From Kiritimatiellia bacterium (GTDB lineage: Bacteria > Verrucomicrobiota > Kiritimatiellia > RFP12 > UBA1067), in the NCBI GenBank assembly GCA_027858965.1, contig JAQIBS010000020.1:23569-87568 (forward strand): DNA of 64,000 nt, in the 5' to 3' direction. The first letter of the stretch is position 1; the number at the start of each line of letters is the position of its first letter. Below are positions 2,767 through 32,201 of the stretch, one piece after another. The notes below the pieces were generated by a model, which saw nothing but the letters and a program-made list of their open reading frames with translations, was not told the origin of the DNA and did no database searches. The position numbers were made by a program, and so were the translations under genes.

Positions 2767-3324
2767 ATGACAAGCAAATACCATAACTTAAACATAACAA
2801 ACAACGGGTTCACTTTAATTGAAATTGCGTTGGTACTATTGGTTATTGGTGTAGCCTTCCTAGGGATTATGGGGCTGGGACATGGCGGCCAGGAATCCGT
2901 CAAAGAAGCCGACAACAACGCCAGATGTGATGACCTAGCTTCAACCCTCTTTAAGACTTTAGAAGTATATAATCAACGCTTCAGCGAAATACAGGCCAAT
3001 ACCCCTGAAAAAAACTGGTCCAGTCAATGGTATGCAGCAATTGGAGAAAACAAACTTCAATTCCCTCCGGTAGCAGGTATGAGCAATCTTTACAACCTAA
3101 TGATCAACGAAGGCTACACCCGTGCAATAGACAACAAATCAATCTATTTGGACAACTGGCACCCATATTACGCACTCATTATGGCAACAAACAAGACATC
3201 TTCTGTTTTTAGTCAACCCAATATGTTTCACGTGAGGCTGCAAATTCTGCCTGATGGTGACACATACTCAAGCGACGAACGAATTTACACGACAACCCTG
3301 ATCAAAAATGGGGGGCTGCAATGA
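2767..3324 (+). CDS. pseudopilin (minor)
   Basis: NNGFTLIEIALVLLVIGVAFLGIMG prepilin N-terminus. Confidence 0.6.
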   Translation: MTSKYHNLNITNNGFTLIEIALVLLVIGVAFLGIMGLGHGGQESVKEADNNARCDDLASTLFKTLEVYNQRFSEIQANTPEKNWSSQWYAAIGENKLQFPPVAGMSNLYNLMINEGYTRAIDNKSIYLDNWHPYYALIMATNKTSSVFSQPNMFHVRLQILPDGDTYSSDERIYTTTLIKNGGLQ

Positions 3325-4166
3325 AAAGGTTATTTTCATCAAACTCCGGCCTAACGATGATTGAGCTAGTTAGCGCAGTATCATTATTCATAGTGATTCT
3401 GGGAGCGCTTACTATGGCACTCAACAAAACAATCGAAATATGGAGCCCTAAACACACAAACCAAGACGAAAAAATAGTCGCACAAAAAATTCTTAACCTT
3501 CTGGAGCAAGATCTTAGTTATGCTGTCGCCGATAATGGAGTGCCCTTTGACACAAGCATATCAACAAATGCACCAACATTTATTGCAAACCCCACTATAA
3601 ACGTCAAGAAGTTGAATATTCTTCTGGGATTTATCAAATACAGCTCATTGAATACGCCCTCCGATATAGCCCCTGCTCTCGACACTGTTTTCTACACCTA
3701 TTACGAAGGAGCTCTATTTCGACGTATAATACCTCTGGATTATGAGGATGTTGATGATCCCGAACATATTGGTGTTTTGTTAGAATTAGAGAGGGCAAAA
3801 GTTATAGGGGAGATAGGAATTCACAATAAGATGATAGAATTCATTAATAATCCCTTAAACAACCCTGAACCGACGATAGATATTGGCTTATTTTCATTGA
3901 TCGCAACTAAAGTCGAGATCAAAAATGTATCCATTGAAATCCCAGATGCTTCAACAGGTGAGAATAATGAGATTGAATCATCTGTACTGCCGGATCTGCT
4001 GTTCTTCTCTCTCAAGCTATACAATGACCGTGATTGGCCAAAATTTGTGAATGCAGAAAAAGCCACGAATGATGATGAGAAACTCACACAACTAACACGA
4101 CATCTAGGCTTTGAGAGCTCACGTATGATACAATTCAGGACGGTATCAGGAACAAGACTAAAGTAA
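3321..4166 (+). CDS. pseudopilin (minor, GspJ-position)
   Basis: NSGLTMIELVSAVSLFIVILGALTMAL; ATGA start/stop overlap with the upstream gene. Confidence 0.55.
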   Translation: MKRLFSSNSGLTMIELVSAVSLFIVILGALTMALNKTIEIWSPKHTNQDEKIVAQKILNLLEQDLSYAVADNGVPFDTSISTNAPTFIANPTINVKKLNILLGFIKYSSLNTPSDIAPALDTVFYTYYEGALFRRIIPLDYEDVDDPEHIGVLLELERAKVIGEIGIHNKMIEFINNPLNNPEPTIDIGLFSLIATKVEIKNVSIEIPDASTGENNEIESSVLPDLLFFSLKLYNDRDWPKFVNAEKATNDDEKLTQLTRHLGFESSRMIQFRTVSGTRLK

Positions 4167-4281: not shown

Positions 4282-8042
<3,761 letters not shown>

Positions 8043-8043
<1 letters not shown>

Positions 8044-8063
8044 AACGCAGCAAGCTGCGTTTT
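8043..8063 (+). terminator. rho-independent terminator after the pseudopilin operon
   Basis: aaacgcagc-aa-gctgcgtttt perfect 9-bp stem plus T-run immediately after the stop at 8041-8043. Confidence 0.6.
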
Positions 8064-8199
8064 AGGTTGAAGTGGTTGAAAGAATTGAAAAATTGGTTGC
8101 CTGCCTGTTGGCAGATAGGCGGTTGCGGAAGCTACGGTTAATTGATAAAATATTATCGTTTTCAACGGAGGTCTCTTATGAGTCATAAAATCAGACAAT

Positions 8200-8598
8200 T
8201 TGTTAGTAAAGGATTCTACAGGTAAGCGAATCATCATTGAGCTTCAATATAAAGATGAGGCAGATTATTTTCACAGGATGGCCTTTGGTGTCAGTAAATT
8301 GATTGCTGCATCTATCAATGAAATATTCCCCACTTTTTATATTCTGCGAATTAATGATTTTGATGATTTGCCCAAGGATGGATTGGATCAGTGGATATAT
8401 TTTCTGAAAAACGAAGCGTTGCCGGAAAACATTACTGCAAAAGGGCTGAAAGAGGCCCAGGACAAACTGGATATAATGAAGCTCAGTACGGCAGAGAGAT
8501 CGGCATACGATGAGTATCAGGAGCAGCTACGTATTGAAGCCAGCGAGATAGAGTTCAGAAAATGCTTAATGGATAAACTCAAGGAATCTCAGATTTAA
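8200..8598 (+). pseudogene. Rpn/YhgA-family (PD-(D/E)XK, transposase_31) nuclease fragment
   Basis: GKRIIIELQYKDEADYFHRMAFGVSKLIAAS resembles the '...IEMQ...' core of the TIGR01784 family; only about 130 aa where full-length members are about 290; upstream ATG (8178) is in another frame and stops after 15 codons; ORF begins at TTG. Confidence 0.35.
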
Positions 8599-19744: not shown

Positions 19745-19890
19745 AGATATCCCCCATTTCAGGTGTCAGGCGTCCCGCCTTCGCCCGCAAGCGGGGCTAC
19801 GGCGAGGCAAGCAGTCGTCAGGTGTTAGTGAAAATTGAAATGCAGCATCAGTTCACTGTCAACTGCAATCTGCACACAGCAAACTGCTCA

Positions 19891-19985
19891 CTGTAAACTG
19901 TAAACTGTAGACTGTAGACTGTAGACTGTAAACTGTAGACTGTAGACTGTAGACTGTAGACTGTAAACTGTAAACTGTACACTGT
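19891..19985. repeat. tandem octamer array (ACTGTAGA/ACTGTAAA)x~12
   Basis: ctgtaaactgtaaactgtagactgtagactgtagactgtaaactgtagactg... immediately 3' of the 19985-20950 gene. Confidence 0.9.
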
Positions 19986-20950
19986 CATCTGATTTCAAGC
20001 TCATCCCCTTTATCAACCAACTCATGCAGATGCAGACGTTCATCCGGCGAATTATTCGGCTGGTGCAGCGCCACCATGAGCTTTCCATCAAATGTTTTAA
20101 AGATCATACCATGCCCCCCGTTCTTGCGGTAGATCACCCGTTGCTCGTTCCAGGGACCACAGACCTTACCCGACTCAGAATGCGTCAGCACAATGCAGTA
20201 TCCTTTGCCGGGAATATGAGTAGACCAGATCATAAACAGCCGGTCGCTTTTCGGACTGCGATAGAGAAAACAGCCATCGGTCACCTTACCCCGCTTCGGG
20301 TCCTTAATACTTCCAGGGGCATCGCTCGCCTTAAAAAGCAGTTTAGGTTTTCCTACCGGAGCGGCAAGATCATCCTGTAGTTCCACAACATCCATAGTGC
20401 CGTCAATGGTCTGCACCCACTCATGACAGAAGATCATATAGGGCGTACCATCCTCAATATGCAGCGTGCCATCCAGTGCCATCCACCCTGCAGGTGTATG
20501 CGGACCTTTCTTAACCGGTTTGAAAGAGCCCTCAAGAGATTCACTAACATAGATGTGAGTTCCCCGTCGATTCATCGGCGGCCAACTCTTCTCATCAATT
20601 GGCTTCTTTTCTAACAATTTCTTATGATAGGTCAGTGTAACAAACAAGTAGTACTTGCCATTATACGCATGCACCTCCGGAGCCCAGACAAATCTGATCT
20701 TTTCAGGATTCCTAAGTTTCAGCACCGGTTTCGGCGGATTCCAGTTCTGCAGGTCCTTGCTGGTATAAACCTCAACTCCTTTAAAATCGCTGCCGGCACG
20801 GTTAGCCGCCTGCGCATACATGTAATAACTCTGCGTTGATTGATCCGCAACGATAAAGGGATCGCGAATGCGAATATCGGCAGTTTTAATCAGCTCTGCT
20901 GAAGCCGCAAATACGCAAAATAAAACGAGATAGGGAAATATAATTTTCAT
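19985..20950 (-). CDS. glycoside hydrolase, five-bladed beta-propeller (GH43-like)
   Basis: signal peptide; IRDPFIVAD...YYMY N-terminal blade motif typical of GH43 (GH32 and GH130 not excluded). Confidence 0.5.
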   Translation of the reverse strand: MKIIFPYLVLFCVFAASAELIKTADIRIRDPFIVADQSTQSYYMYAQAANRAGSDFKGVEVYTSKDLQNWNPPKPVLKLRNPEKIRFVWAPEVHAYNGKYYLFVTLTYHKKLLEKKPIDEKSWPPMNRRGTHIYVSESLEGSFKPVKKGPHTPAGWMALDGTLHIEDGTPYMIFCHEWVQTIDGTMDVVELQDDLAAPVGKPKLLFKASDAPGSIKDPKRGKVTDGCFLYRSPKSDRLFMIWSTHIPGKGYCIVLTHSESGKVCGPWNEQRVIYRKNGGHGMIFKTFDGKLMVALHQPNNSPDERLHLHELVDKGDELEIR

Positions 20951-21717: not shown

Positions 21718-22560
21718 TCATTGGTTACATTGTTCTTCCAAACAAGTTTCGATTTTTTTGACCTTACTCTTCAAAGCATCATCATCTTTCTGAACCTTCA
21801 TCAATTTCCTGATCTGGCTTCCCACCGCCGCACCACTTGATAAATTCAACACCTCAGCTACAGCCCGCTTAGTCATACCAGAGAACCTGCAAAGCATTTG
21901 AGCCGTAACCGGCCGGATCATACACCCCCGCTGACGCGTACAGATATACTCTTTATCAACTCCAAAAACATTACAGACAGCATCAACAACAACATCTGGA
22001 GGAATCGCTTCCACCTGATCTCTGAATGCGGCATCCTTCGGCACTCCGCTCTCTTCAACCAGCGCCTTATACAATCTTCTCACGCGACAATCAAACTCCA
22101 GAGATCCAATCGAATGAGGTGAAGCATCCTTCACCTGCATAAACTCATCATCGCTCTGAGCGATCCCATCCTCAACAAAACTTCTGTATTTCTTACGTGC
22201 AACAGAATCTCCTCTCGCATCAACCATAGCTAGCACCGGTTCATACTCGACAAAATCCAACGCCTTGGACTTATCAACATATCCACCATAGCTACTCCAG
22301 CCATAAGAGTTCAATTTAGCCAGGCGTTTTTCCAAAGATTGCATTTTAACGGTGGCAATACATACCGGGTTCAAATGAACATAGCGTGTGAGAGAAAGCA
22401 GATAAGAGTCACCATCTACAAGTTTCGCCCCGAAACGACCTTGAAACAAATGCCCGGAGTAATTGTTCTTCAGATTGTAATAGACGGTGTAGCCAGTTGT
22501 CAGACTCTGCATAAAACGGCTGATATTACCCAACGGAGTTTCACATACCAGATGAATATG
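21718..22560 (-). pseudogene. Y1 (HUH) IS200-like transposase fused to DnaA-C-like HTH, N-terminally truncated exactly at the HUH motif
   Basis: In-frame read-through upstream of the TTG 'start' gives TAA-HIHLVCETPLGNISRFMQSL...GHLFQGRF...YVHLNPV (HUH, then Y motif); about 55 N-terminal residues expected for the family are absent; the stop lies inside the RIT inverted repeat. Confidence 0.55.
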
Positions 22561-22634
22561 TTATGTAAAGTAACTGATTATGTGAAGTTCATCAACTCTT
22601 TCTCTTTCTAGCCCTTTTATTATACATTTCCCCA

Positions 22635-23663
22635 TTAATTTACTGCACATAATTCTGGTTGTTGAGTGAGCTTTTCAAGCCACCTCAGCATAGATGGTTT
22701 TTTCCAAGGAGGCTTGCTTTTGTCCTTGGGTGCATCGACTGTTTCAAGCATTTTACGCTTCATTTCCATATCTATTTCAACGTACATATGTGTTGTATTC
22801 AAAACCGCATGTCCAAGCCAGTAACTTATCATTGTGATTTCATTATTGGCATGCAGCAGGTGCATGGCGGTGGTGTGCCTGATGCGGTGCGGATTAAGAG
22901 GTTTAGCCTTCAGCGCGGGCTGTTTAACCTGGGCAAGAAAACCATACTTTCGAGTTACATGGCGTATGCCAAAGCGGGTAATGGGGCCTCTATTGGCGTT
23001 GAGAAAGATCTGTTTCGTTTCCGGGTCTTTAGGTGTGCGCTGCCTGATATATGCGTTCAATGCGGTTACTGTTTCCGACCACAGCGGGCAGGACCGATCT
23101 TTATTTCCTTTCCCATGTAATTTAACCTGGGGTGCCTTATTCAGTTGTAAATCAGTAAGTTCGATGCCGATTATTTCGCTGACGCGTGCGCCGGTGTTGT
23201 AAAGAAGCATGAGCAGAGCTTTATCTCGTATGCCTGTGCGGGAGTTTATGTCAACTGCATCTAGAACTGCCTGCATTTCCTCCTCCTTTAGATAATCGAT
23301 GCTTTTATGTCTGGTGCGCTTCAGTGGAATACTTCGAACTTGCTGGCATTGCTCAACAAGGACGGGTTCTTCACGGGCAATGAACGCGAATAAGCTGCGG
23401 ATAGCCGCTAAACGGGCATTACGGGTGTTTGCAGTGCAACCTCTCTCCTGCTCAATGCTATCAAGAAAGCCGAGAACTGTCTTTTCGGTAATATCTTCAA
23501 CATCCAGTTTGTCAACAGAGTGTTTAAGCGTCTCAGCCGCGTAACAGAGTAACAGCTTAGTTGCGTCCCGGTAGGCAAGGATGGTATTGATTGAGAGCTT
23601 TCTTTGTATGGGCAGATAATGGCTGAAAAAACGCTTCAGCAACGGCGCGATGGAATGTGTCAT
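22635..23663 (-). CDS. tyrosine recombinase (RIT third gene, RitC-position)
   Basis: phage-integrase-family catalytic region HRIRHTTAMHLL...GH...T..Y; start overlaps the upstream gene's stop. Confidence 0.75.
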   Translation of the reverse strand: MTHSIAPLLKRFFSHYLPIQRKLSINTILAYRDATKLLLCYAAETLKHSVDKLDVEDITEKTVLGFLDSIEQERGCTANTRNARLAAIRSLFAFIAREEPVLVEQCQQVRSIPLKRTRHKSIDYLKEEEMQAVLDAVDINSRTGIRDKALLMLLYNTGARVSEIIGIELTDLQLNKAPQVKLHGKGNKDRSCPLWSETVTALNAYIRQRTPKDPETKQIFLNANRGPITRFGIRHVTRKYGFLAQVKQPALKAKPLNPHRIRHTTAMHLLHANNEITMISYWLGHAVLNTTHMYVEIDMEMKRKMLETVDAPKDKSKPPWKKPSMLRWLEKLTQQPELCAVN

Positions 23664-24655
23664 GATTGTTCTCCTTCTGATGCGATATGATTGAGGTAAT
23701 GATTATGGAACCGGCGGCTGACTTCACCTTGAAGTTCGGCCGTCGGCTGCAGGTATATCAGTGTCGAGCTGATATCCACATGGCCCATATATGTGGCCAG
23801 CGCAGGCAGCCGGGCATTAATATCTTCGCCGTCCTGATACCAGGCCAGCAGGCGATGAACTGCGAACGTGTGCCTCAAGTCGTGGATGCGCGGCCCGGTA
23901 TCCTTGTGGTAAGCTATATCGCAGGTTTTAAGCACTGTCCTGTACGTGGCGTAGACCGTCGGATGACTCAGCTGCCGGCAACACTCGTTTAGCAGCAGAG
24001 GTGATTCCGGTATATTCGGTTTCTTTTTGCCGCGTTGCTCCAGATACTGCTGCAATGCGTCGCGGGTTGATTCACTTAAAACTATCCAGCGGGCTTTACG
24101 GAACTTTCCCTTGGCAACATAGAGCCGCATCTCTGCCGGAAAGAAGTCCTCGATGTTCAAAGCCATGGCCTCTCCAATCCGGAGTCCAGTACTGTACAAC
24201 AGGCCGAACAGCGTCCAATAGGTTTGCGGGCGTAATGATCCTGTCGGAGTCAGCTGTAAAGAGGCCCGCAATAATGCGGCGACCTCCTCTTTTGTGAAGA
24301 TGTAGGCTCTGTGTGTCTGATGTGACGAGGGAGTACGTAACGCTTCGGGGATATAACTGAGCGGATCACTCAGTGCCAGATATCTGCATAATTGTCGGAC
24401 AACACAGAACCGGTTGCCCTGAGAGCGCGGGGCAAGACCGACGAGTTCTTTCTGATACGAATCGCAGGTCTCACGTGTTATGCGCCTCTGCCATATGTTC
24501 TGTCCGACCAGAAAGTGGTCGAAGTATCCAAGAAGACGGGCCTGGCTGGCATAGTCTGTGCCTGAAAGACATCGGAGTTTGATAAACTTCCCGATCTCTT
24601 CCGCTAAACAACTGCAAAGGGTCCATGCTCTCATGAGAGCACCTCCTTTGGCCAT
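23660..24655 (-). CDS. tyrosine recombinase (RIT second gene, RitB-position)
   Basis: RIHDLRHTFAVHRLL...LATYMGHVDISSTLIYL integrase R-H-R-Y motifs. Confidence 0.75.
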   Translation of the reverse strand: MAKGGALMRAWTLCSCLAEEIGKFIKLRCLSGTDYASQARLLGYFDHFLVGQNIWQRRITRETCDSYQKELVGLAPRSQGNRFCVVRQLCRYLALSDPLSYIPEALRTPSSHQTHRAYIFTKEEVAALLRASLQLTPTGSLRPQTYWTLFGLLYSTGLRIGEAMALNIEDFFPAEMRLYVAKGKFRKARWIVLSESTRDALQQYLEQRGKKKPNIPESPLLLNECCRQLSHPTVYATYRTVLKTCDIAYHKDTGPRIHDLRHTFAVHRLLAWYQDGEDINARLPALATYMGHVDISSTLIYLQPTAELQGEVSRRFHNHYLNHIASEGEQS

Positions 24656-25893
24656 TCCAGAGCAACCTGACTCAATGCGTTGAAGTCAACCTTGGTATAT
24701 ATGAAGGTTGTGGATAAATGTCGATGTCCAAGTACGTCAGCGACCGCTTTGAAAGAATACCCTTCGGCAACTTTCCGTGTCGCGAAAGCGTGACGGAAGG
24801 CGTGTGAGCCCTTGCAGGACACATTTATATCTGCTTCAATATGCCGACTGACGATAGCGGATAACGTACTGCTACGCGGCAGGCTCCGGTAAGGTGCGCG
24901 GCCTGTTATAAACACTTCCGGACAGGCGCATGCCGGTCGCCCTTCACGTAGATAATTCAGGATGCTTTTGCCGACCTCCCGTGTAATAGGCAGCAGGCTG
25001 TCCTTGCCGTTTTTAGTGGCTCTGAATAAGATCTGTTCGTTTTTCCAGTCAATATCACTGAGTTTCAGAGCTCGGACTTGGCCGCCTCTGACTCCGTAGG
25101 CGTGCAGTATGGATATGATCGCATAATCCCTAATGCCAACCGGAGTGCCGCAGTCAACAGAGTGAAGGATTGTCTGCGCCTGGGTTTCGTTTATACCACG
25201 CGGCACCCGCGCCAGCTTGTATGTGCGCAGTGTCGGCACCGCTTGATCAAGATGCAGATGGATGAAACCCTGATAGAAACAAAAGCGCAGAAATGTGCGC
25301 AGTGCAGCCTGCATTGAGCGGCGGGCCGCGTTTCCCATTTTATCTGCAATATCAAGAAAGAATGACTCAACGTCATCCGGCATCAGCTCACCCACGCCAT
25401 CGGATGTGGCTTTCGCCCCCAGCGCATTCAGAAATTTCACCAGACTGCTACGCCGAACTTTCAGGGTTCCCTCAGCAGCATGCTGATGATCTTTCATCCA
25501 CCACAGATAGCCGGAAAGCAACGATTCATAACAGGGCGTGTCTTTCCACACCTTAAATAAACCATTGTCATCAAGGTGTTTACAGAATCGATTGATCGAT
25601 AACCGATTCCGCCGGAGGTGTAATTCCAGTGGTCCCCTGTGCCTGCACAGCAACCTGTAGTCGGCATAAAAGGCATCAATATCGCTTTGAGTCAGATGCT
25701 CTTCCCATTTCCACTTTTCATCCGCAAGCCATGTGTTCAGATGTGATACATGGCTGAGATGCAAACGAATTGTACCTCTCGAAAACCCTTGATCCAGCAA
25801 TTCGTCACAAAAGTTATCCAGTAAGTGCCCCAAGGGCTCACTCCGCAATTTTGCCAGAGTGCATGAATAGGTAAAAACTTGTTCCAGTGCCAT
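24631..25893 (-). CDS. tyrosine recombinase (RIT first gene, RitA-position, 420 aa)
   Basis: HAFRHAFATRKVAEG...LGHRHLSTTFIYTKV integrase C-terminal motifs; longer N-terminal SAM-like region. Confidence 0.75.
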   Translation of the reverse strand: MALEQVFTYSCTLAKLRSEPLGHLLDNFCDELLDQGFSRGTIRLHLSHVSHLNTWLADEKWKWEEHLTQSDIDAFYADYRLLCRHRGPLELHLRRNRLSINRFCKHLDDNGLFKVWKDTPCYESLLSGYLWWMKDHQHAAEGTLKVRRSSLVKFLNALGAKATSDGVGELMPDDVESFFLDIADKMGNAARRSMQAALRTFLRFCFYQGFIHLHLDQAVPTLRTYKLARVPRGINETQAQTILHSVDCGTPVGIRDYAIISILHAYGVRGGQVRALKLSDIDWKNEQILFRATKNGKDSLLPITREVGKSILNYLREGRPACACPEVFITGRAPYRSLPRSSTLSAIVSRHIEADINVSCKGSHAFRHAFATRKVAEGYSFKAVADVLGHRHLSTTFIYTKVDFNALSQVALEWPKEVLS

Positions 25894-26044
25894 GACAGCC
25901 TCCTTTTCAACCTCAATAATTGAGGTCTCTAAGAAGATTCATAGCATATAATTATGTTGAGTAAAAGTTTTGTAGAGAGAGTAAAAGGCCTGTTAATAAA
26001 GAGAAAGAGTTGATGAACTTCACATAATCAGTTACTTTACATAA

Positions 26045-26920
26045 CATACACATCTTCTGATCGAGTCTCCTGAAGGTAATGTCAGTCGTGCAATGCAGTG
26101 GCTGAATACCAGTTACAGTGTCTGGTACAACATTAAACATGAGTGTGCCGGAGCGCTTTTCCAGCCTCGGTTTAAGAGTATTCCCGTTGACAGTGAGGGC
26201 GCGTGGGCATTTTATTGCGCCATGTACATTCACTTGAATCCTGTGCGGATAAAGGCTTTGGGGCTTGGCAAGGAAGACCGGCAGCGGGATAGAGCGGGAA
26301 TGCTTCCTGAAGAGCCGAAACCGGAACTGGTGTTGAAGCGGCTTGAAACACTTCGTAATCACCGATGGAGTTCATATCCCGCTTATGCCGGATATGCAGA
26401 AAGGCCGAAGTGGCTGTATTGTGAAGAACTGTGGCTGCACGGAAATGAAAAATCGGCTGATCCTCAAAAAGATTATCGGGAGTGGATTGAGAATTACATC
26501 AAACAGGGTGTCGAGGAGAAAACATTCGCAAAGATAGCCGGCGCACTCATTATCGGCAGTGCGCAATTCATGGCCAGGCTGCGCAAGAATGTACTGAAAG
26601 ACAGAGGTGTGAATTCAAACGAGAGAAAGTGGCGCAGGCTGCTTCCTTTTGATGATGTTGTGAATGCGGTCGAGCAGGTCAAGGGTGTGCCTTGGAATGA
26701 TTTTGAAAACCTGTATGGGGACTGGGGCAGAGATCTGGCTTTATATATTGGCCGGGTGCGTTGCGGATTGACGCTTCGGGAGCTGGGGGAGCAGGTCGGG
26801 TTGAAAATGCAGACAGTTTCAAAGGCCGTTTCACGTATCGGGAAAAGGTTGCGCCATGATAAGGAGTTGCAAATCGCATACGGACATGTGCTTAAATTGC
26901 TGAATAAAAAAGAAGGTTAG
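26045..26920 (+). pseudogene. second, diverged Y1 (HUH) transposase / DnaA-C-like HTH paralog, N-terminally truncated at the HUH motif
   Basis: Upstream in-frame read gives TAA-HTHLLIESPEGNVSRAMQWLNTSYSVWYN...ALFQPRF...YIHLNPV; mirror arrangement to 21718-22560, roughly 40-50% identical by eye. Confidence 0.55.
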
Positions 26921-27062
26921 CCTCAAAATGTCGCTTTTCCATCTACGACCCCTATGCTTCACCTATGCTTTCAATTTTCATTTTGATATCCAGAATCGGC
27001 AAAGCAACATTTTCCATAGTTTAGCATTGACCTACCGTATCCAAGAGGCTACACTATCTGAC

Positions 27063-27353
27063 ATGGTTGAAATTCGTAAAACTGACACATTTTCCAAATG
27101 GATCGATGGATTGCGTGATATACGCGCTCGTGCACGTGTCCAAGTAAGGATTGAGCGTCTTGCGCAAAGAAACGCTGGAGATGTAGCACCGATTGGAGAA
27201 GGGGTTTCGGAGTTGCGAATTGATTATGGGCCAGGATACAGAGTATATTTTAAGAAAATCGGAAAAATCGTGATAATTTTACTGGCTGGCGGAAACAAGA
27301 AAACGCAGTCCAGAGATATTAAAACAGCATTGCGGCTAGCAAAAAATCTTTAG
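27063..27353 (+). CDS. addiction-module killer protein (RelE/ParE superfamily, TIGR02683-like)
   Basis: MVEIRKTDTFSKWIDGLRD...IDYGPGYRVYFKKIG is a typical 'putative addiction module killer protein'; start at internal Met. Confidence 0.6.
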   Translation: MVEIRKTDTFSKWIDGLRDIRARARVQVRIERLAQRNAGDVAPIGEGVSELRIDYGPGYRVYFKKIGKIVIILLAGGNKKTQSRDIKTALRLAKNL

Positions 27354-27361
27354 GAGTTCTT

Positions 27362-27661
27362 ATGAGTAAGACTAAAACAACAAAATATGATATCGCTGAA
27401 CATTTACGGACACCGGAAGAGATGGCAGCATACCTTGAGGCTTGCCTGGAAGAATCGCAAGGAGATGGCGCTTTTGTTGCCAAGGCTCTCGGTGATATAG
27501 CCCGAGCAAAAGGGATGACGCAAATAGCCCGTGATACCGGATTGTCAAGAGAGAGCTTATACAAAGCCTTATCAGGAGACCGCATGCCCAGTTTTGACAC
27601 AATACTCAAAGTTGTCCAAGCCCTTGGATTAGAGTTGCGTGCCGCTCCAATTCAAACCTGA
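27362..27661 (+). CDS. addiction-module antidote protein (HTH antitoxin, TIGR02684-like)
   Basis: YDIAEHLRTPEEMAAYLEACLEE...GMTQIARDTGLSRESLYKALS; 8 bp downstream of the toxin. Confidence 0.6.
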   Translation: MSKTKTTKYDIAEHLRTPEEMAAYLEACLEESQGDGAFVAKALGDIARAKGMTQIARDTGLSRESLYKALSGDRMPSFDTILKVVQALGLELRAAPIQT

Positions 27662-27704
27662 TTCATTATGTTGCAAATTATGGGAGCTAGAGAGACGCGC
27701 ACAG

Positions 27705-27950
27705 CTAAGCTAATGCACCAGCCTGCTTGTAAGGCTTAATTTCTGACAATTCGCTCTGCTCCTTAACACCGACAGCGTAAAGATCCCAGCGTAACTGAAG
27801 GTTCATCCCGAAATCCTCAGTGACACTAAAGTAGCGAGCCAAACGCAGAGCAGTGCTAGGTGTTATACCCCGACGCTGATTAACAATCTCATTAACCCTT
27901 TGATAAGGAACCTTTATAGCATCCGCAAGCTCTTTTTGCGTCATGCCCAT
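27705..27950 (-). CDS. higA: HigA-family XRE-HTH antitoxin
   Basis: MGMTQKELADAIKVPYQRVNEIVNQRRGITPSTALRLARYF is a canonical HigA HTH. Confidence 0.6.
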   Translation of the reverse strand: MGMTQKELADAIKVPYQRVNEIVNQRRGITPSTALRLARYFSVTEDFGMNLQLRWDLYAVGVKEQSELSEIKPYKQAGALA

Positions 27951-28026
27951 CGGAATAAGAAACTATTGCAGCAACATCTCTCCCGGATGGGTTGGTTTTC
28001 TATTTGTAGGAACTCTGATCATTATC

Positions 28027-28257
28027 TTAAAAATTTTCAACTAATTGAGATAGGGATTCAAAATAACGTCTATGGGTTTTCCTCAAGGCATTTTCATCAG
28101 AAGCGTTAAGTATCACAACTTCCCTATCAATTCCCTGCTTAAGATTCTTTAACTCAAGCTCTAAACGCTGATTTTCTGCATCAACTCTCTCTTCGTCTGA
28201 AAAAGATTTAACTTCCTCAAGTTTGCTTTTGCTACGATCATATGTAAGTAAAAAAAA
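28027..28257 (-). other. 77-codon start-less open frame, in frame with and directly after the TGA of the upstream RelA/SpoT-like ORF; coiled-coil-like
   Basis: Translating codon-by-codon from TGA (28260-28258) gives FFLLTYDRSKSKLEEVKSFSDEERVDAENQRLELELKNLKQGIDREVVILNASDENALRKTHRRYFESLSQLVENF* with no ATG or GTG. Confidence 0.4.
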
Positions 28258-28749
28258 TCATAATATCTCCTTTATGTCATCAATAGTTGACATCATACTG
28301 CGGATCTCATTTTTAAGATTTTCTTTCATCTCAAAGACAAACTCTTTATCCAGTAACTCAATCAATTTCTCATCTTCTAATGACGCACCCTCAAATCTTG
28401 CTAATATTAATTTATCATGCTCAATTTCATCAACAACTTGTATCTGAGCCGCCATATCAGGAACAACTATCCTGCATCCAGAGATATCAGCCATTTGCGA
28501 TAAACGCATCGGACTTCTAAACAGCTTTTCACATATTGAGATAGTTGTCTTAGCTGGCCTACCAGAAACAGCAACTCCCAAAATCGTTCGAAGCTTGTCG
28601 ACCACTTCTAAATAAAATGGGGAAAAACTTCTCCTGTAATGATCAAGTTTTTCAAGATTTTCATCTGTAAGGCTCAACCGTAAAGAATCACCCAGTTTAT
28701 CTATACTTGATTTTGTCATGTTATTTCCATCAGAATTAATAAATATCAT
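28258..28749 (-). CDS. RelA/SpoT-domain (small alarmone synthetase-like) protein, divergent, possibly decayed toxSAS-type toxin
   Basis: HYRRSFSPFYLEVVDKLRTILGVAVSGRPAKTTISICEKLFRS...MADISGCRIVVPDM aligns with the RelQ/RelA G-loop region (..GRVKPVASILEKARRK...DIAGLRIM..), but the GYxSxH and EIQIRT motifs are not found. Confidence 0.4.
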   Translation of the reverse strand: MIFINSDGNNMTKSSIDKLGDSLRLSLTDENLEKLDHYRRSFSPFYLEVVDKLRTILGVAVSGRPAKTTISICEKLFRSPMRLSQMADISGCRIVVPDMAAQIQVVDEIEHDKLILARFEGASLEDEKLIELLDKEFVFEMKENLKNEIRSMMSTIDDIKEIL

Positions 28750-29061
28750 GTCATGATTGTTGTATCATCACAACCAGAAAGCAAAATGAGTTTATTGCAA
28801 TCGAGGTAATCGACTAAACACATTCTATTTTCTATATACTACGGAGCATAGCGACTCATTTTCCCTCTTCACCCTTCAATCTTCAATCTGTCCCCTCTAA
28901 CTTCATAATCCACAAGACGAGGTACGTGGGGCAGTGCGGATTTTGATTTTTGAGGCGAAGCCGTGCCCGCGAAGCGGGACAAAAAGCTCTTCCGCGTCGT
29001 CCCTCGCACCTCTTCAACTTTAGCACTTTAGAACTCTCGCACTTTAGAACTTCTTACCCCT

Positions 29062-30759
29062 TCACTCACCTATCCACCCAAGATCATCCTTCTTTCGGTC
29101 AATGATGCGACGCAGCATCCAGGCCAGCATCAGCAGAGCGGCAAACCAGAGCCACACAGCCCAGAGCGGCCAGTTATGGACTTCAAAATGCGTAAACCGG
29201 CAACCTGATATAAGAGAAGCTGTTTTAATCATGATCGTGGTAAATACAGCTGCCGCATTATTAAAACAGGCGGCCAGCCATACAGAGAAAAAACTGGCAA
29301 CAAAACCCAGAACGCCAGCGGTGACCAGCATCAGGGCACATGGGGTGATAATCATATTTGCAAGCAGTCCCCCGGGCGTGATCCGCTCAAAAAAATAGGC
29401 ACTCAAAGGCATTGAAGCCAACCAGGCCGATGTCGTTACCGCCATTAACTCCGCAATAAAGGTCAATACAGCAGCACAGCGACTGAGATATGCCGCTTTT
29501 TTATAATCCTCTGAAACAGAGTAAAGACGGGACTGAAGTTCGAGATCTTCAACCTTGAATGCCTTTTTAAATATTTCACAAACCGGCTTGAATAAAACAA
29601 TCAGCCCCAGCATAACACTGAAAGAGAGGATGCACCCAAGGTTAAAAATATATGACGGAGCAAAGAGGTGAACCACAAGCGCAGTGGCAGCCAGAGCCGA
29701 CAATGCGTTGAACCTACGGCCAATAACGGGAGCGGAAAAGTAGAACAGGGCCATTATACAGGCGCGAACAGCGCTGGGACGCAAACCAGTTGCAAAGGTA
29801 TATATAAAAAGCAGCGGTGCCAGGATGTATACCCAATAATAACGAGGAACACCGCACGAGGAAATAAAGAGAACCAGGACCGATGCGATCAAGGCAATAT
29901 GAAGGCCGGATATAGCAAAGACATGAATCGTACCCGACCAGGCAAATTTCTGTCGCAGCGCCCAGGGTATTTTACTTTTAAAACCCAGTAATACCGCCTG
30001 ATGAATAGCAACAACATCATGCCAGTCCTCAATGCCGATAGCGATACGACTGGATGCCCCTTTACTAAATTCGGCAACTCTGACAGCCAGAGCTCCTGAT
30101 TCACCGGAACTCAAGCATTTTGAATGGCTCTCACCGCTGTTTAGAATCAGCCGGGGGTCTCCACTACGATCCTCTCCCACATACATTCTCCCGGCAAAAC
30201 TCCACTTGTTCCCACGTTCAGGGACCTTGGTAACCAGCCCTTCTTTATCACCATACCAGTTAACAATCAAAGGAGCGGTGATATGTCGCCCCCCTTCAAT
30301 CAAGTGAACATCAGAAACTTTAAAACGATATCTGGCTGCGCGCCCCTTGAGTGGACGAACCGATGGATTATAAGCTACCGTACATTCAACAGATATAGCA
30401 CTTGATGATGATTCTACAAAAGAGATATCAGATCTGATTCTATAAATGTCATACGATGAACGCGCAAAACCGGCCACAAAAAAAATCAGAACTAAAAATA
30501 TTTTTCTGACAAATGGCTTGCAAAGCCAGAGAGAGAGAATGGAGAGTGCCACAAATATCAGGAAGAGGGAGAGATAAACAGCTGGAGTAAAACCGAAAAA
30601 TTTATAACCACCCCAAACACCGGCAAGAGAGGCCGCTGTTACTGTAACGATCAGTGGAATTTTTGCACAATCACGCAAAAAGATGACAAGATTTAAGAAA
30701 AGAGGTCCTAAACTCCTGCAATTTATTTTGCTCTCGCTATTACTATCATTCTTTTTCAT
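29062..30759 (-). CDS. comEC: ComEC/Rec2-family DNA-uptake channel protein (no beta-lactamase domain)
   Basis: DUF4131-like N-terminal TM region plus competence domain with AISGLHIALIASVLVLF; 565 aa polytopic. Confidence 0.7.
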   Translation of the reverse strand: MKKNDSNSESKINCRSLGPLFLNLVIFLRDCAKIPLIVTVTAASLAGVWGGYKFFGFTPAVYLSLFLIFVALSILSLWLCKPFVRKIFLVLIFFVAGFARSSYDIYRIRSDISFVESSSSAISVECTVAYNPSVRPLKGRAARYRFKVSDVHLIEGGRHITAPLIVNWYGDKEGLVTKVPERGNKWSFAGRMYVGEDRSGDPRLILNSGESHSKCLSSGESGALAVRVAEFSKGASSRIAIGIEDWHDVVAIHQAVLLGFKSKIPWALRQKFAWSGTIHVFAISGLHIALIASVLVLFISSCGVPRYYWVYILAPLLFIYTFATGLRPSAVRACIMALFYFSAPVIGRRFNALSALAATALVVHLFAPSYIFNLGCILSFSVMLGLIVLFKPVCEIFKKAFKVEDLELQSRLYSVSEDYKKAAYLSRCAAVLTFIAELMAVTTSAWLASMPLSAYFFERITPGGLLANMIITPCALMLVTAGVLGFVASFFSVWLAACFNNAAAVFTTIMIKTASLISGCRFTHFEVHNWPLWAVWLWFAALLMLAWMLRRIIDRKKDDLGWIGE

Positions 30760-30952
30760 GTTTTTTTTGCATGTTTATTTATCGCTAATATTATAACCTA
30801 TTAATAGTACATGAATTAAAAGACTGTACAAATGACAATACACTTTTAACACAAAGGCACAGTGACACTGAGTTATTAACCGAAAACACCAAACTCTAAA
30901 AAATGCTTGGCATCCGTCTTCTTTGCGTCTTTGCGCCTTTGCGGGAGAATAG

Positions 30953-31942
30953 TCAAATAACCGGAGCAAGCACTTCCACATCGGCACGCATCCGGGCAAT
31001 ATCCTCCGGCTGTATTTCAACATCACCGGCACCGGCATTCTCAATGATATTGCTCTCTTTACGGGCACCACAGAGTGCGCAGGTCAGACCGGGCTGTGCA
31101 ATAGTCCAGGCAATAACCAACTGAGCAACGGTACAGTTGTATTTGGTTGCAAGGCTCTCCCAGCCCTTGACCATTGTAATCACCTTGATACGGTTCTCGG
31201 GGTTGAACCAGGAAATACGATTACGCACTGCGGAATCGGTCAGCTTATAATCCATGCCGATCTTACCGGTCAGCAACCCCTGTTCTAAAGGAGAGTAGGC
31301 CAGAACAGCCACATTATTTTTAATACAATAGGGCAACACTTCGCTCTCAATCCCTCGATCCAACATACTGTAACGTGGTTGGTTAGAGACTATTACACCG
31401 GCGGCACGATACTCATCCATTTCGGCACAACTCACATTGGAGGCACCAATTGCTCGTATCTTGCCGTCATCACGCATCTTCATGAGGTAGGCCATGGTAT
31501 CTTCAATGGGTGTTTTATCTGGTTCTACCGATTGCCAATGCGTTTGCAACAGGTCAATACACTCGGTCTGCAATCGCGTCAAACTACGCTCGATTTCAAT
31601 CGTAAGTGTTTCAGCTGAGAGCGACCGATTAACTGTATGTCCATCATAGTCAAAGTGATAGGAGCCACGCTGATCATCCCACCAGAGGCCGCACTTGGTT
31701 GCCAGCACCGCTTTATCGCGTCGGTCACGCAACGCCTCGCCAACAACCTTTTCGCTATGTCCAAAACCATAAACCGGGGCTGTATCAATCAGATTGATAC
31801 CATGATCCAATGCAGCATGAATAGTTTTGATAGATTGCTGATCATCGTTATCACCCCACCATGGACCGCCACCGATCGCCCAGGTCCCCATGGCCACTGC
31901 TGAGACTTTAATTCCACTGTTGCCCAACTCTCTATATTGCAT
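30953..31942 (-). CDS. aldo/keto reductase
   Basis: MQYRELGNSGIKVSAVAMGTWAIGG...DTAPVYGFGHSEKVVGEAL canonical AKR N-terminus. Confidence 0.75.
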   Translation of the reverse strand: MQYRELGNSGIKVSAVAMGTWAIGGGPWWGDNDDQQSIKTIHAALDHGINLIDTAPVYGFGHSEKVVGEALRDRRDKAVLATKCGLWWDDQRGSYHFDYDGHTVNRSLSAETLTIEIERSLTRLQTECIDLLQTHWQSVEPDKTPIEDTMAYLMKMRDDGKIRAIGASNVSCAEMDEYRAAGVIVSNQPRYSMLDRGIESEVLPYCIKNNVAVLAYSPLEQGLLTGKIGMDYKLTDSAVRNRISWFNPENRIKVITMVKGWESLATKYNCTVAQLVIAWTIAQPGLTCALCGARKESNIIENAGAGDVEIQPEDIARMRADVEVLAPVI

Positions 31943-32201
31943 ATGTACTCTCCTGTTTTTTGCATTTAAAACTCTTTAAATAATAGCATATTTTGCATTA
32001 GTAGCTATAACATCAAATTCTTATTGTTTTTGGTTAAAATATTGTGTGCGGCTTTGCTACTCTACGTTCTTAGTGATGAGGATATTGAGTTGGGACAGAG
32101 CATTTGTAAAATTTCACGCATGAGTCCTAAATCTTAAGTGATAGAATATATCAGCATTTAAAAAAAATACCTCCTTGATTATCAACGACTTACAAAAAAA
32201 T

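Follow-up and report, generated by a model that had tools for sequence, protein, structure and literature searches.

RIT elements have been described as multicopy units of about 3.5 kb, in which ritA, ritB and ritC overlap and are enclosed by terminal inverted repeats (IRs) (Van Houdt et al. 2009, 2012; Ricker et al. 2013). The RitA subfamily is characterized by two consecutive core-binding domains (Smyshlyaev et al. 2021, PMC8138268). For these elements no convincing recombination sites were found (PMC3414803) and no circle junction was seen (PMC5737581), and their target specificity, empty site and mode of movement are given as 'not tested' (PMC10214605). A target preference for HUH-coding DNA is not mentioned in the RIT literature examined, and a prior mention in Ricker et al. 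2013 is possible.

The element and the flanking gene remnants

A complete ritA-ritB-ritC element with perfect 51-nt inverted repeats was confirmed at 22555-26050 of the window, the 64-kb stretch of DNA analysed here. It is like the described RITs in its overlapping genes, length, terminal repeats and multicopy occurrence. The features are as follows:

21718..22560, minus strand: 3' fragment of the left Y1(HUH)+HTH gene, opening with the first His of the HUH motif (H-I-H-L-V)
22555..22560, minus strand: left core o, 6 bp, CATATT (codons H-I), placed by comparison with 63 junctions
22561..22607, minus strand: terminal inverted repeat, ritC side, B1-N7-B2, the TAA of B2 being in frame with the flanking gene
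22561-22570, minus strand: half-site B2, ritC side, CTTTACATAA, carrying the in-frame TAA
22578-22587, minus strand: half-site B1, ritC side, CTTCACATAA, 7 nt away from B2
22635..23663, minus strand: ritC, 342 aa, PF00589 (1.8e-31) and a SAM-like domain
23660..24655, minus strand: ritB, 331 aa, tyrosine recombinase, PF00589 match
24631..25893, minus strand: ritA, 420 aa, tyrosine recombinase, PF00589 match at residues 234-404
25998..26044, plus strand: terminal inverted repeat, ritA side (B1 26018-26027, N7 26028-26034, B2 26035-26044, in-frame TAA 26042-26044)
26045..26050, plus strand: right core o, 6 bp, CATACA (codons H-T)
26045..26920, plus strand: 3' fragment of the right Y1(HUH)+HTH gene, a diverged paralog, beginning H-T-H-L-L-I-E-S-P-E-G

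The three rit ORFs (420, 331 and 342 aa) are adjacent on one strand, overlap by 25 and 4 nt and all match PF00589. RitC is the most XerC/XerD-like of the three (XerD 3e-51, XerC 1e-50, both below cutoff). The N-terminal SAM-like matches of RitA (residues 26-79 and 136-200) are both weak; neither stretch is significant alone, and the second lies below the Pfam cutoff. A tblastn search of plasmids aligned 99% of the window RitA with its C. necator pHG1 counterpart at 31.8% identity (E=2e-49), the match lying inside annotated trios. A fourth conserved gene was found neither between the window IRs, which enclose the three recombinase ORFs only, nor in the 3.5-kb units described below.

The arms 22475-22607 and 25998-26130 are 77% complementary, and their inner 51 nt (22557-22607 and 25998-26048) are, in direct reading, identical copies of the repeat. 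The 43-mer core of this repeat occurs exactly twice in the window, with 0 occurrences expected from 100 shuffles. Each RIT end carries two direct half-sites (B1 CTTCACATAA, 7 nt, B2 CTTCACATAA) followed by the 6-bp core o, which codes for His-U.

Read outward in frame with the genes, the left end (minus strand) translates as ...YFT*HIHLVCETPLGNISRFMQSL and the right end as ...YFT*HTHLLIESPEGNVSRAMQWL; therefore the TAA and CATA (the first four bases of the His and the next codon) lie inside the identical repeat. This bears out the first-pass annotation, in which both RIT ends were placed against the HUH codon of two outward-facing Y1-HTH paralogs, with the TAA and first His codon within the IR. 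The two genes point away from the element and are 31% identical to each other, that is, homologous but diverged, as had been stated. Both lack about 59 N-terminal residues, close to the earlier estimate of about 55. The full-length homologs of the right-hand gene (330-355 aa) carry 59 extra N-terminal residues, ending ...LHAYVLMGNH before YHLL. The truncation of both window genes is strongly supported. In alignments, the right gene was 62-69% identical to its nearest full-length homologs (342-351 aa).

Both window genes match the REP-associated tyrosine transposase model NF047646 only from position 58 of 146 (span 58-134). Against PF01797 the fragments cover model positions 52-108 of 121, with 18.8 bits at a cutoff of 23, and a complete Y1 catalytic domain (N-terminal strands, HUH and the catalytic Tyr helix) is not present in them. 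The full-length homologs P0003 and P0017 pass PF01797, and most of the listed homologs carry a precomputed PF01797 match. Judged by these alignments, the window genes are 5'-truncated remnants of PF01797/NF047646 family members. Both transposase genes flanking the window RIT are dead. The C-terminus of the left gene (residues 182-274), possibly an HTH related to DnaA domain IV, resembles DnaA positions 362-458 (E=8.6e-6, far below the model cutoff), and the right gene gave only weak Sigma70_r4 and HTH_3 hints. Within the 64-kb window, no further Y1 fragment was found, nor was the palindrome P (see below) outside the element region. The right core, CATACA (His-Thr), differs both from the His-Tyr expected from the orthologs and from the left core.

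Target sites and junctions of related elements

Using a RitA profile, 73 loci were retrieved from genome_contigs, and tblastn with full-length Y1-HTH proteins gave fragments broken at residue ~60 beside RITs in many phyla. Based on the junction tables, about 70 RIT ends from roughly ten phyla comprise 35 H-type ends, 28 P-type ends and about 7 genuine others. At the H-type ends, o and the flank translate as H-x-H followed by two mostly hydrophobic residues (H-U-H-U-U); C and A are invariant (35/35 each), and C and A are found again in 35/35 six bases on. At the P-type ends, the ...N-H-U of a 5' gene half is joined via a conserved 20-bp palindrome, P, and the 5' flanks translate as (L/V)(M/L)xNH(U). 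The target motifs are varied (HYHLLI, HFHLLL, HWHLVL, HVHLVM and others) and come from many unrelated Y1 subfamilies. The B1-N7-B2 architecture is kept in nearly all related loci.

Removal of the insert (3495-3571 bp) restores long ORFs of 361 codons in L127, 331 in L042, 332 in L007 and 343 in L017. In L127 the insertion is clean, and its target belongs to the Y1-HTH subfamily of the window's right gene. An uninterrupted homolog (L129, 83% nucleotide identity) supplies the intact pre-insertion target that the first-pass annotation had asked for: it has a single AAC-CATTAT-CATATT, with one o and no P, and both o copies of L127 map onto the same 6 nt of it. Since 63 of the ~70 ends, in independent loci, lie at HUH-coding DNA, and since ORFs are restored and an empty site exists, site-specific insertion of the RITs of this clade at HUH-coding DNA is strongly supported by sequence comparison. 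The proposed survey of other RITs for insertion in Y1 genes (35 H-type and 28 P-type ends) thus upholds the target choice put forward in the annotation's first explanation. We infer that the 6-bp core o is the crossover region common to element and target.

An ordinary insertion reads 5'half...AAY-o-P-o'(inverted)-B2'B1'...ritABC...B1 B2-o-CAY YTN...3'half, or, in terms of IRs, 5'half-AAY-o-P-o'-IR...RIT...IR-o-CAY-3'half, where o is 6 bp coding for H-U. P is a perfect 20-bp palindrome, TTATGTNNAG.CTNNACATAA, built from two B-like half-sites. Simple insertions of the form 5'half-P-RIT-3'half were found at about 15 loci. P is always located on the 5'-half side regardless of the direction of the rit genes, which face each way about equally often. 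In two comparisons within one genome (L023 with L024, and L034/L036 with L035), the flanks are near-identical and the RIT is flipped, and P stays with the 5' half. P covaries with the RIT lineage, with palindromy kept (TTATGTCAAGCTTGACATAA in L018, TTATGTGAAGCTTCACATAA in L042), and its half-sites are systematically different from B2, yet conserved across phyla. ACATAA-N6-TTATGT flanks P on both sides at every P-type junction and at 51 metagenome junctions. Inner and outer o are identical in only 12 of the 28 P-type junctions, and o differs between the 5' and 3' junctions of four apparently simple insertions (L007, L014, L017 and L052). Either frequent flank exchange between copies or a loose requirement for core identity may account for the differing o. 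Neither P nor the 6-bp common core featured in the first-pass annotation.

Three metagenome contigs, representing two elements, link the ritC end to the ritA end via IR-o-P-o'-IR, which implies a circular or tandem form. All three junctions have asymmetric spacers and non-identical arms. L110 has a unit of 3524 bp, and its Rit proteins are 56-67% identical to those of the window; its overlap is 639 bp with one mismatch, and tandem copies fit as well as a circle. L097 and L118, which come from two samples, represent one element (unit 3620 bp, with terminal overlaps of exactly matching 99 and 120 bp). Many of the 51 B-o-P-o'-B matches are perfectly symmetric and lie at contig ends, and these were excluded as evidence. 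Together with L119, a perfect 7.2-kb palindrome, they could be assembler fold-backs at the palindrome. The circular or tandem units of 3.5-3.6 kb contain ritABC only and no Y1 gene. Mobility of the RIT as a unit is indirectly suggested by these units, by the different flanks of copies within a genome and by restoration of the target ORF.

Integration and the origin of the window layout

Based on the above results, we consider it highly probable that RITs of this clade integrate conservatively and site-specifically into N-H-U-H-U-U-coding DNA of Y1 (IS200-like/REP-associated) genes, and that the window copy is a secondary product. In the free form, presumably a circle, B2-o-B* would be joined to B*-o'-B2' in a palindromic double core, each half of which would be a dif-like 10-6-10 site. 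The target b-o-b' may recombine with either core, the asymmetric 6-bp o acting as the guide, which would account for both rit orientations and for P keeping its place. Each kind of half-site (IR, P and target) probably falls to a different one of the three Xer-like recombinases.

Both ends of the window copy are attR-type junctions (IR-o-3'half), and P is absent; therefore, it is no primary insertion. A single insertion had already been judged unable to give this layout, and the ~15 simple loci, which read 5'half-P-RIT-3'half, agree. The layout with two 3' halves is also present in L026 and L041, and the reciprocal one, with two 5' halves and two P, in L033. Like L026 and L041, the window copy is, to judge from its junctions, a product of secondary rearrangement. 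It probably arose by a second recombination of one RIT end, or of the inner core, with a second HUH site in another paralog. If this second site was occupied by a RIT, an inversion or a deletion between direct copies would result; if it was empty, inversion or deletion would follow according to orientation. In its present state, the window RIT could probably only flip and not be excised.

The inversion suggested in the first-pass annotation is possible but less likely than not: two opposite RIT copies in two Y1-HTH paralogs would have recombined, homologously or via IR cores, and inverted the chromosome between them. The window copy would then be left with two 3' halves, and a sister copy would have received two 5' halves together with two P. 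This route requires genes lying either way round with respect to ritA, and the two orientations are about equally frequent; the predicted reciprocal type exists (L033), and flanks are shuffled within one genome, the 3'-junction core of L007 (CACATC) being identical to the 5'-junction core of L009. However, one search for the window's own reciprocal junction gave no match and another search retrieved only L001, a second copy of the same junction arrangement, and deletion routes yield an identical local structure. To the left and to the right of the element alike, the GC skew is negative, without a change of polarity there, so any inversion would have to be old or nearly symmetric around the origin or terminus, and this counts against it. 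The lack of a skew discontinuity suits a deletion, which is about as likely as the inversion. From divergent neighbouring paralogs, <-3'B <-5'B ... 5'A-> (P RIT) 3'A->, both 5' halves and P would be excised by recombination of the RIT inner core (B*-o'-B2') with B's HUH site, or of two RIT copies in direct orientation with each other. In such an arrangement, judging from the site architecture, the two cores would point the same way, and a tyrosine recombinase acting on them would cause a deletion; the related locus L126 shows a RIT-associated loss in which the element and 45 target codons are gone and 5'half-P-IR is left. Against this, the paralogs are former neighbours by assumption rather than by direct evidence, and L126, whose right side is syntenic (comEC), is not homologous to the left flank of the window. 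Recombination of one RIT with an unoccupied paralog, or deletion between divergent paralogs, fits equally as well as inversion.

It is improbable that the RIT is linear, with telomere-resolvase-like hairpin ends and the same target specificity, P being the replicated or resolved hairpin joint. P is indeed a perfect palindrome at one junction only, and there are many symmetric IR-o-P-o'-IR contig ends as well as one palindromic contig, L119. Moreover, Nielsen et al. 2017 (PMC5737581) saw exonuclease-protected RIT DNA and no circle-junction reads, and suggested hairpin intermediates. However, the ACATAA-6-TTATGT elements to either side of P are spaced exactly as in Xer-type cores, the P half-sites keep their difference from B2 across phyla, the asymmetric-spacer junctions of L110, L097 and L118 are not fold-backs, and the symmetric cases are explicable as assembly artefacts. 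The other explanation in the annotation, that the Y1-HTH genes are cargo or partners of RITs, was rejected as very improbable. Truncated genes do recur beside RITs, and 275-aa ORFs from the same internal Met are called elsewhere (P0048, P0049), but the flanks belong to many unrelated Y1 subfamilies and differ within a genome. In addition, the 5' halves match across the element and the ORF returns on removal of the insert, the circular or tandem units lack a Y1 gene, all 3' halves have an in-frame TAA ahead of them, and the HUH catalytic motif is divided.

Returning to site-specific integration, a wider reading, which is as likely as not, is that RITs would be circular integrative elements derived from Xer and complete in themselves, with two dif-like cores in mirror image as their attachment region. 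A single large clade (~ten phyla) would home to the HUH codons of Y1 genes, with the His-U pair as the 6-bp crossover and with recombinases specialised for IR, palindrome and target half-sites. If true, such a RIT would be a 'parasite of parasites', inactivating Y1 transposases and scattering portable recombination sites through which chromosomes are rearranged.

Comparison with known systems

The pHG1 RIT is similar in having a doubled TTATG half-site upstream of ritA. Unlike in classical proteobacterial RITs, RitA of the window clade is only ~31-33% identical to theirs, and the clade is distinguished by a defined target (HUH-coding DNA), a 6-bp core, P and head-to-tail junctions, all of which are new relative to known RITs in the literature examined.

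We take E. coli dif to be divided into two arms and a central region, GGTGCGCATAA-TGTATA-TTATGTTAAAT. The RIT core site has the Xer/dif form, with two inverted half-sites of ~10-11 bp around a 6-bp centre, and its ...CATAA-N6-TTATG... half-sites share the shape of dif (28-mer given in PMC3025954). As in XerCD/dif and IMEX (e.g., CTX phage), integration appears to be conservative, via a short central region, and the Rit proteins score best against the XerC/XerD models. Unlike these systems, the RIT encodes its own three recombinases, which are well below the XerC/XerD equivalog cutoffs. Its target is a coding motif of a transposase family and not chromosomal dif, its attachment region is double with a mirror-image core, and the target half-sites do not resemble dif arms.

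Tn554, the integrative elements that circularize with a strand bias (SE) and GInts also combine several tyrosine recombinases with site-specific targets, and have a 6-bp core or footprint (PMC10214605). Unlike them, the RIT has no TnpC/Srap/GinD-type or Tfp/GinC-type accessory protein; they, in turn, lack both long terminal inverted repeats and the palindrome P, and use other targets.

Homing to conserved or 'safe' sites is known for Tn7 at glmS and for integrative elements in tRNA genes. Further parallels are homing endonuclease genes at catalytic-motif codons and insertion sequences nested in other insertion sequences. The common feature is a highly conserved, widely available target whose disruption is costless to the host, here the transposase motif of another element. 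In contrast to homing elements, the RIT destroys its target rather than preserving it, and recognizes a motif of many diverged families, not one locus.

Recombinase trio and truncated Y1-HTH genes of the window

A complete recombinase-in-trio (RIT) element was found on the minus strand of the window at 22555-26050. Its three genes, with overlaps of 25 and 4 nt between their reading frames, are as follows:

24631-25893, minus strand, ritA (420 aa)
23660-24655, minus strand, ritB (331 aa)
22635-23663, minus strand, ritC (342 aa)

RitA, RitB and RitC all matched the phage-integrase catalytic domain, and their best-scoring models were XerC/XerD, with scores below the cutoff. There was also a weak indication that RitA has two core-binding domains, a character of the RitA subfamily. 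A repeat search placed the arms of the terminal inverted repeat (IR) at 22475-22607 and 25998-26130 with 77% complementarity; based on direct reading, the inner 51 nt of the arms (22557-22607 and 25998-26048) are identical. A 43-mer from the IR occurs exactly twice in the window, with no occurrence expected by chance.

Translated outward in frame, the left end reads ...YFT*HIHLVCETPLGNISRFMQSL and the right end ...YFT*HTHLLIESPEGNVSRAMQWL. The two flanking genes, encoding a Y1 transposase with a helix-turn-helix (Y1-HTH), are 31% identical to each other, face outward and both begin at the HUH motif (His-U-His, where U is hydrophobic), which is catalytic in Y1 transposases. The full-length relatives of the right-hand gene (330-355 aa) have 59 additional N-terminal residues ending in ...LHAYVLMGNH immediately before YHLL. 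A precomputed PF01797 match exists for most of the listed full-length relatives, and proteins P0003 and P0017 passed PF01797 when tested. In the REP-associated tyrosine transposase model (146 positions), the match to the window fragments starts only at position 58. Given the read-through across the IR and its TAA, the shared HUH start, the 59 missing residues and the model match beginning at position 58, the first-pass annotation was correct in every detail in describing RIT ends that abut the HUH codons of two truncated, diverged, outward-facing genes. The observation is real and non-random.

The six bases adjoining the IR, hereafter the core o (a His-U codon pair), are CATATT on the left and CATACA (His-Thr, 26045-26050) on the right. 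In orthologs and related insertions, the codon pair is His-Tyr (CATTAT, CACTAC) instead of this His-Thr. Thr at the U position of HUH is unexpected, and the right core is not simply derivable from either parent core.

To the right of the element, three small genes were noted:

26928-27353, small protein, RelE/HigB-like by eye, directly right of the truncated Y1-HTH gene
27362-27661, small ORF, taken as an HTH antitoxin by eye from sequence
27705-27950, HTH_3 gene

The stretch of a syntenic contig (L126, ENA ERZ21831104 ctg64482l) matching 26928-27353 holds a Gp49-family gene (PF05973). The HTH_3 gene has 86.6% DNA identity to one upstream of the Y1 ortholog in L126, against 66-73% in the surrounding synteny, and the small module therefore looks mobile. 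Elsewhere in the window (19888-20091), a minus-strand ORF translation contains the short tandem repeat FTVYSLQ/STVYSLQ four times, which corresponds to a 21-nt tandem DNA repeat lying between two glycoside-hydrolase-like genes.

RIT ends in other genomes and the attachment site

With a RitA profile, 73 loci were retrieved from one-genome-per-species contigs; the ends of each element were located and the flanks were read outward. In tblastn searches with full-length Y1-HTH queries, Y1 fragments broken at about residue 60 directly adjoined RITs. The survey of other RIT-bearing genomes for insertions inside Y1 genes, proposed in the first-pass annotation, thus found Y1 halves beside RITs across many phyla; the host MAGs were labelled Opitutia, Verrucomicrobiota, Planctomycetota, Desulfobacterota and other "delta" lineages, Binatia, Bacteroidales, Fermentibacteria, Lentisphaerales, Gammaproteobacteria and others.

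Every IR follows a common plan: half-site B1 (CTTCACATAA), 7 nt, half-site B2 (GCTTCACATAA) and then the 6-nt o. At H-type ends (n = 35), o and the next codons encode H-U-H-U-U (for example, HYHLLI, HFHLLL, HIHLLC, HVHLVM, HWHLVL and HTHIVL, from several Y1 subfamilies), and the CA opening o and the CA six bases on are invariant (35/35). At P-type ends (n = 28), a palindrome of 20 bp, P (TTATGTNNAG.CTNNACATAA), comes after o and is itself followed by the inverted 6-mer (o'), beyond which lies, in antisense, the ...AAY of a 5' gene half with the last residues (L/V)(M/L)xNH(U). Each class is about equally frequent at the ritA and ritC sides, and about seven genuine ends (L009, L022, L038, L046 and the distant L050) belong to neither. 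Taken together, the 35 H-type and 28 P-type ends strongly support the site-specific insertion of RITs at HUH-coding DNA.

The ends of L046 (at about 55 and 4373), L022 and L038 and the A-end of L009 have a normal B1-N7-B2 but non-HUH sequence alongside, with the cores TGCCCA/AGCCCA, CGGCTG and CAGATC; P is present in L046. Such ends represent other target specificities or else junctions that are off-target or rearranged. Two more distant RITs (RitA 38-47% identical), L049 (ritA 7001-8254) and L065 (about 2483), have the same motif with the junction 6 nt upstream, namely AACGTC/CAT TTT CAT (N-V/H-F-H) and GACCCG/CAT TTT CAT (D-P/H-F-H), respectively. This offset indicates clade-dependent registers of the core with respect to HUH.

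An ordinary insertion reads 5'half...AAY-[o]-P-[o']-B2'-N7-B1'...ritABC...B1-N7-B2-[o]-CAY-YTN...3'half, and one junction of each class was found in about 15 loci. In silico deletion of 3495-3571 bp, from the outer o to the end of the second o, gave long ORFs across the junction (361 codons in L127, 331 in L042, 332 in L007 and 343 in L017). L127 (GCA_018400935.1) is a clean insertion in the same Y1-HTH subfamily as the right-hand gene of the window, with the layout ...AFALLGNHY, P, GTAGTG, IR...RIT...IR, CACTAC, HILLESPEGNVSQAMQWL. The intact homolog sought for the pre-insertion target was found in L129 (83% nucleotide identity to L127), which reads AAC-CATTAT-CATATT at the insertion point; both o copies of L127 align to this single six-base stretch, and P is absent there. 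The target thus contains one o, and three are present after insertion (two direct and one inverted), while P is brought in by the element. P also varies in step with the RIT lineage yet remains palindromic (TTATGTCAAGCTTGACATAA in L018, TTATGTGAAGCTTCACATAA in L042), which identifies it as part of the element.

The assignment of P to the 5' gene half was rejected, as the L007 gene ends in ...MDNH, the next 26 nt are non-coding and uninterrupted homologs lack P; the misreading arose from a gap-free tblastn alignment that apparently extended to residue 60 and stopped 27 nt before the IR. A derivation of the outer IR from the target gene was dropped as well, the resemblance of ELHIISYFT*H to the family's LLHAYVLMGNH being weak and B having no real counterpart in the target half-sites.

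Head-to-tail junctions and the origin of the window layout

On both sides of P lies ACATAA-N6-TTATGT, a motif shaped like a Xer core site (for the E. coli dif 28-mer, see PMC3025954). A pattern search of metagenome contigs for the predicted end-to-end junction B-o-P-o'-B' gave 51 matches, many of them perfectly symmetric and located at contig ends; such matches could result from the assembler folding back at the palindrome and were not counted as evidence. L119 (1-7238) is a perfect 7.2-kb palindrome in which two RITs meet head-to-head at their ritA ends via IR-ATCAAT-P-ATTGAT-IR; it was likewise set aside as probably such a fold-back, although a real inverted dimer or a hairpin-derived form is possible. 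Further matches, in L076, L095 and L124, fell in tandemly arrayed TTATGTTAAACATAACATAA-ATATAC units that have no rit genes near them; this array is either an unrelated repeat or a satellite resembling dif.

L110, L097 and L118 cannot be fold-backs. L110 has the order ritB-ritC-IR-CATTGG-P-CACGTG-IR-ritA-ritB-ritC; its arms are not identical, its spacers differ and its ends overlap directly over 639 bp (1 mismatch). The unit of L110 is 3524 bp, and its Rit proteins are 56-67% identical to those of the window. L097 and L118, one element from two samples, have the same head-to-tail order, with exact terminal overlaps of 99 and 120 bp and a unit of 3620 bp. These three junctions indicate that a circular or tandem form exists, made of ritABC, IRs and o-P-o' only.

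The following scheme can be proposed. The end-to-end junction would be a mirror-image core pair, B2-o-B* and B*-o'-B2' (B* being a half-site of P), and a target b-o-b' could recombine with either core, the alignment presumably being set by the asymmetric 6-bp core. This would explain both the two rit orientations and the constant position of P beside the 5' half. Flipping after insertion, through recombination of the inner core with the far end, would have an equal effect on orientation; it may lie behind near-identical flanks within one genome that hold oppositely oriented RITs (L023 vs. L024; L034/L036 vs. L035). In the junction comparison, the target half-sites had no real similarity to B, which suggests, speculatively, that the target has a dedicated recombinase among the three.

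The window copy has IR-o-3' half at both ends and no P. Such a layout cannot be produced by one integration, as the first-pass annotation held, since an ordinary insertion has one P-type and one H-type junction. Two 3' halves also surround the RITs of L026 and L041, and L033 has the reciprocal arrangement, in which P accompanies each of two 5' halves. Several possibilities can be considered: an inversion by recombination of two RIT copies in opposite gene orientations, as originally proposed; recombination of the inner core of one RIT with the HUH site of an unoccupied paralog, leading to inversion or deletion depending on paralog orientation; or a deletion between two copies in direct orientation, located in neighbouring paralogs that are divergent. 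The GC skew has a negative sign to the left and right of the element, with no change in polarity, which speaks against a recent inversion confined to one replichore; this test is uninformative for an inversion symmetric about the origin or terminus and is also compatible with deletion. A RitA search of contigs for the reciprocal junction or a sister copy gave one 2.2-kb metagenome contig only, with the same right-hand junction as the window, and an exact IR 30-mer had 0 matches in metagenome contigs. Flank exchange between RIT copies clearly occurs in other loci, the 3'-junction core of L007 being identical to the 5'-junction core of L009 in one genome.

The alternative that Y1-HTH genes are functional cargo or partners of RITs is not supported, as the gene halves beside RITs represent many Y1 subfamilies and vary among the copies of a single genome. 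It is also contradicted by the complementarity of 5' and 3' halves across the element, by the in-frame TAA from B2 ahead of every 3' half and by the free or tandem RIT units without a Y1 gene.

L126 is syntenic with 26183-31957 of the window (Y1-HTH, then comEC). At 3075-3430 it has 5' half-CACTAT-P-GATATG-IR and about 110 bp of ritC-side sequence, fused to about residue 105 of Y1; the deletion reaches about residue 105 of the gene whose 5' half precedes P. This remnant indicates that RIT insertions at the Y1-HTH/comEC locus also decay by deletion. The fusion is annotated as a 295-aa chimeric ORF (P0065), the start of which is the ATG complementary to the His codon. As the window copy has neither P nor an attL-type junction, inversion in place is probably its sole remaining move.

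Significance and comparison with known systems

RIT elements are common in bacterial genomes, and their mode of movement has been an open question since 2009. The attachment-site architecture and the head-to-tail forms make this question directly testable. The statements open to test are a defined target (AAY-CAYNNN-CAY-YTN in genes for Y1 transposases), a core of 6 bp, element half-sites of two classes, the obligatory presence of a 20-bp palindrome and candidate circular forms. A mobile element specialised in the catalytic-motif DNA of another transposase superfamily is relevant to conflict between mobile elements and to the decay of IS200/RAYT-type genes, and it accounts for recurrent odd layouts in which two back halves (as in the window) or two front halves of different paralogs surround one RIT. 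Tool builders could also be interested in a compact, self-sufficient set of sequence-specific integrases whose sites are short and dif-like.

In the 2012 RIT survey, no convincing recombinase-binding repeats were reported; the sole features noted were an inverted repeat together with an "overlapping palindromic sequence", and one insertion each in radC and in the gene of a Tn6049-like transposase (PMC3414803). A mobilome study found protected RIT DNA and no circle junction (PMC5737581). Target specificity, empty site and movement of RITs were listed as untested in a 2023 comparison of tyrosine-recombinase transposons, and transposition is given there as not reproduced (PMC10214605). No mention of "recombinase in trio" together with IS200 was found in the literature searched, and the "RIT" matches in mSphere 2025 were Rho-independent terminators, irrelevant to the element. 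HUH-directed site-specific RIT insertion appears to be new relative to this literature, which did not cover Ricker et al. 2013.

The window element shares with known RITs the trio order, overlapping frames and inverted repeats; its RitA is 31.8% identical to RitA of the pHG1 trios, and its clade is distant from the classical proteobacterial RITs. Upstream of ritA in a canonical proteobacterial RIT of C. necator pHG1 (L128 292-318; NC_005241.1, about 128215-128241), there is a doubled half-site, TTATGCCGGC-N7-TTATGCCGCG, so the B1-N7-B2 plan seems general to RITs, with a differing half-site sequence. At least three trios are nested in the pHG1 region, which was used here solely to view this doubled TTATG half-site. 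Having no fourth accessory gene, the window RIT falls outside Tn554, SE and GInt. The E. coli dif site is split into arms as GGTGCGCATAA-TGTATA-TTATGTTAAAT. RITs are predicted to work similarly to Xer/dif integrative elements but differ from them in having their own recombinases and a coding-motif target.
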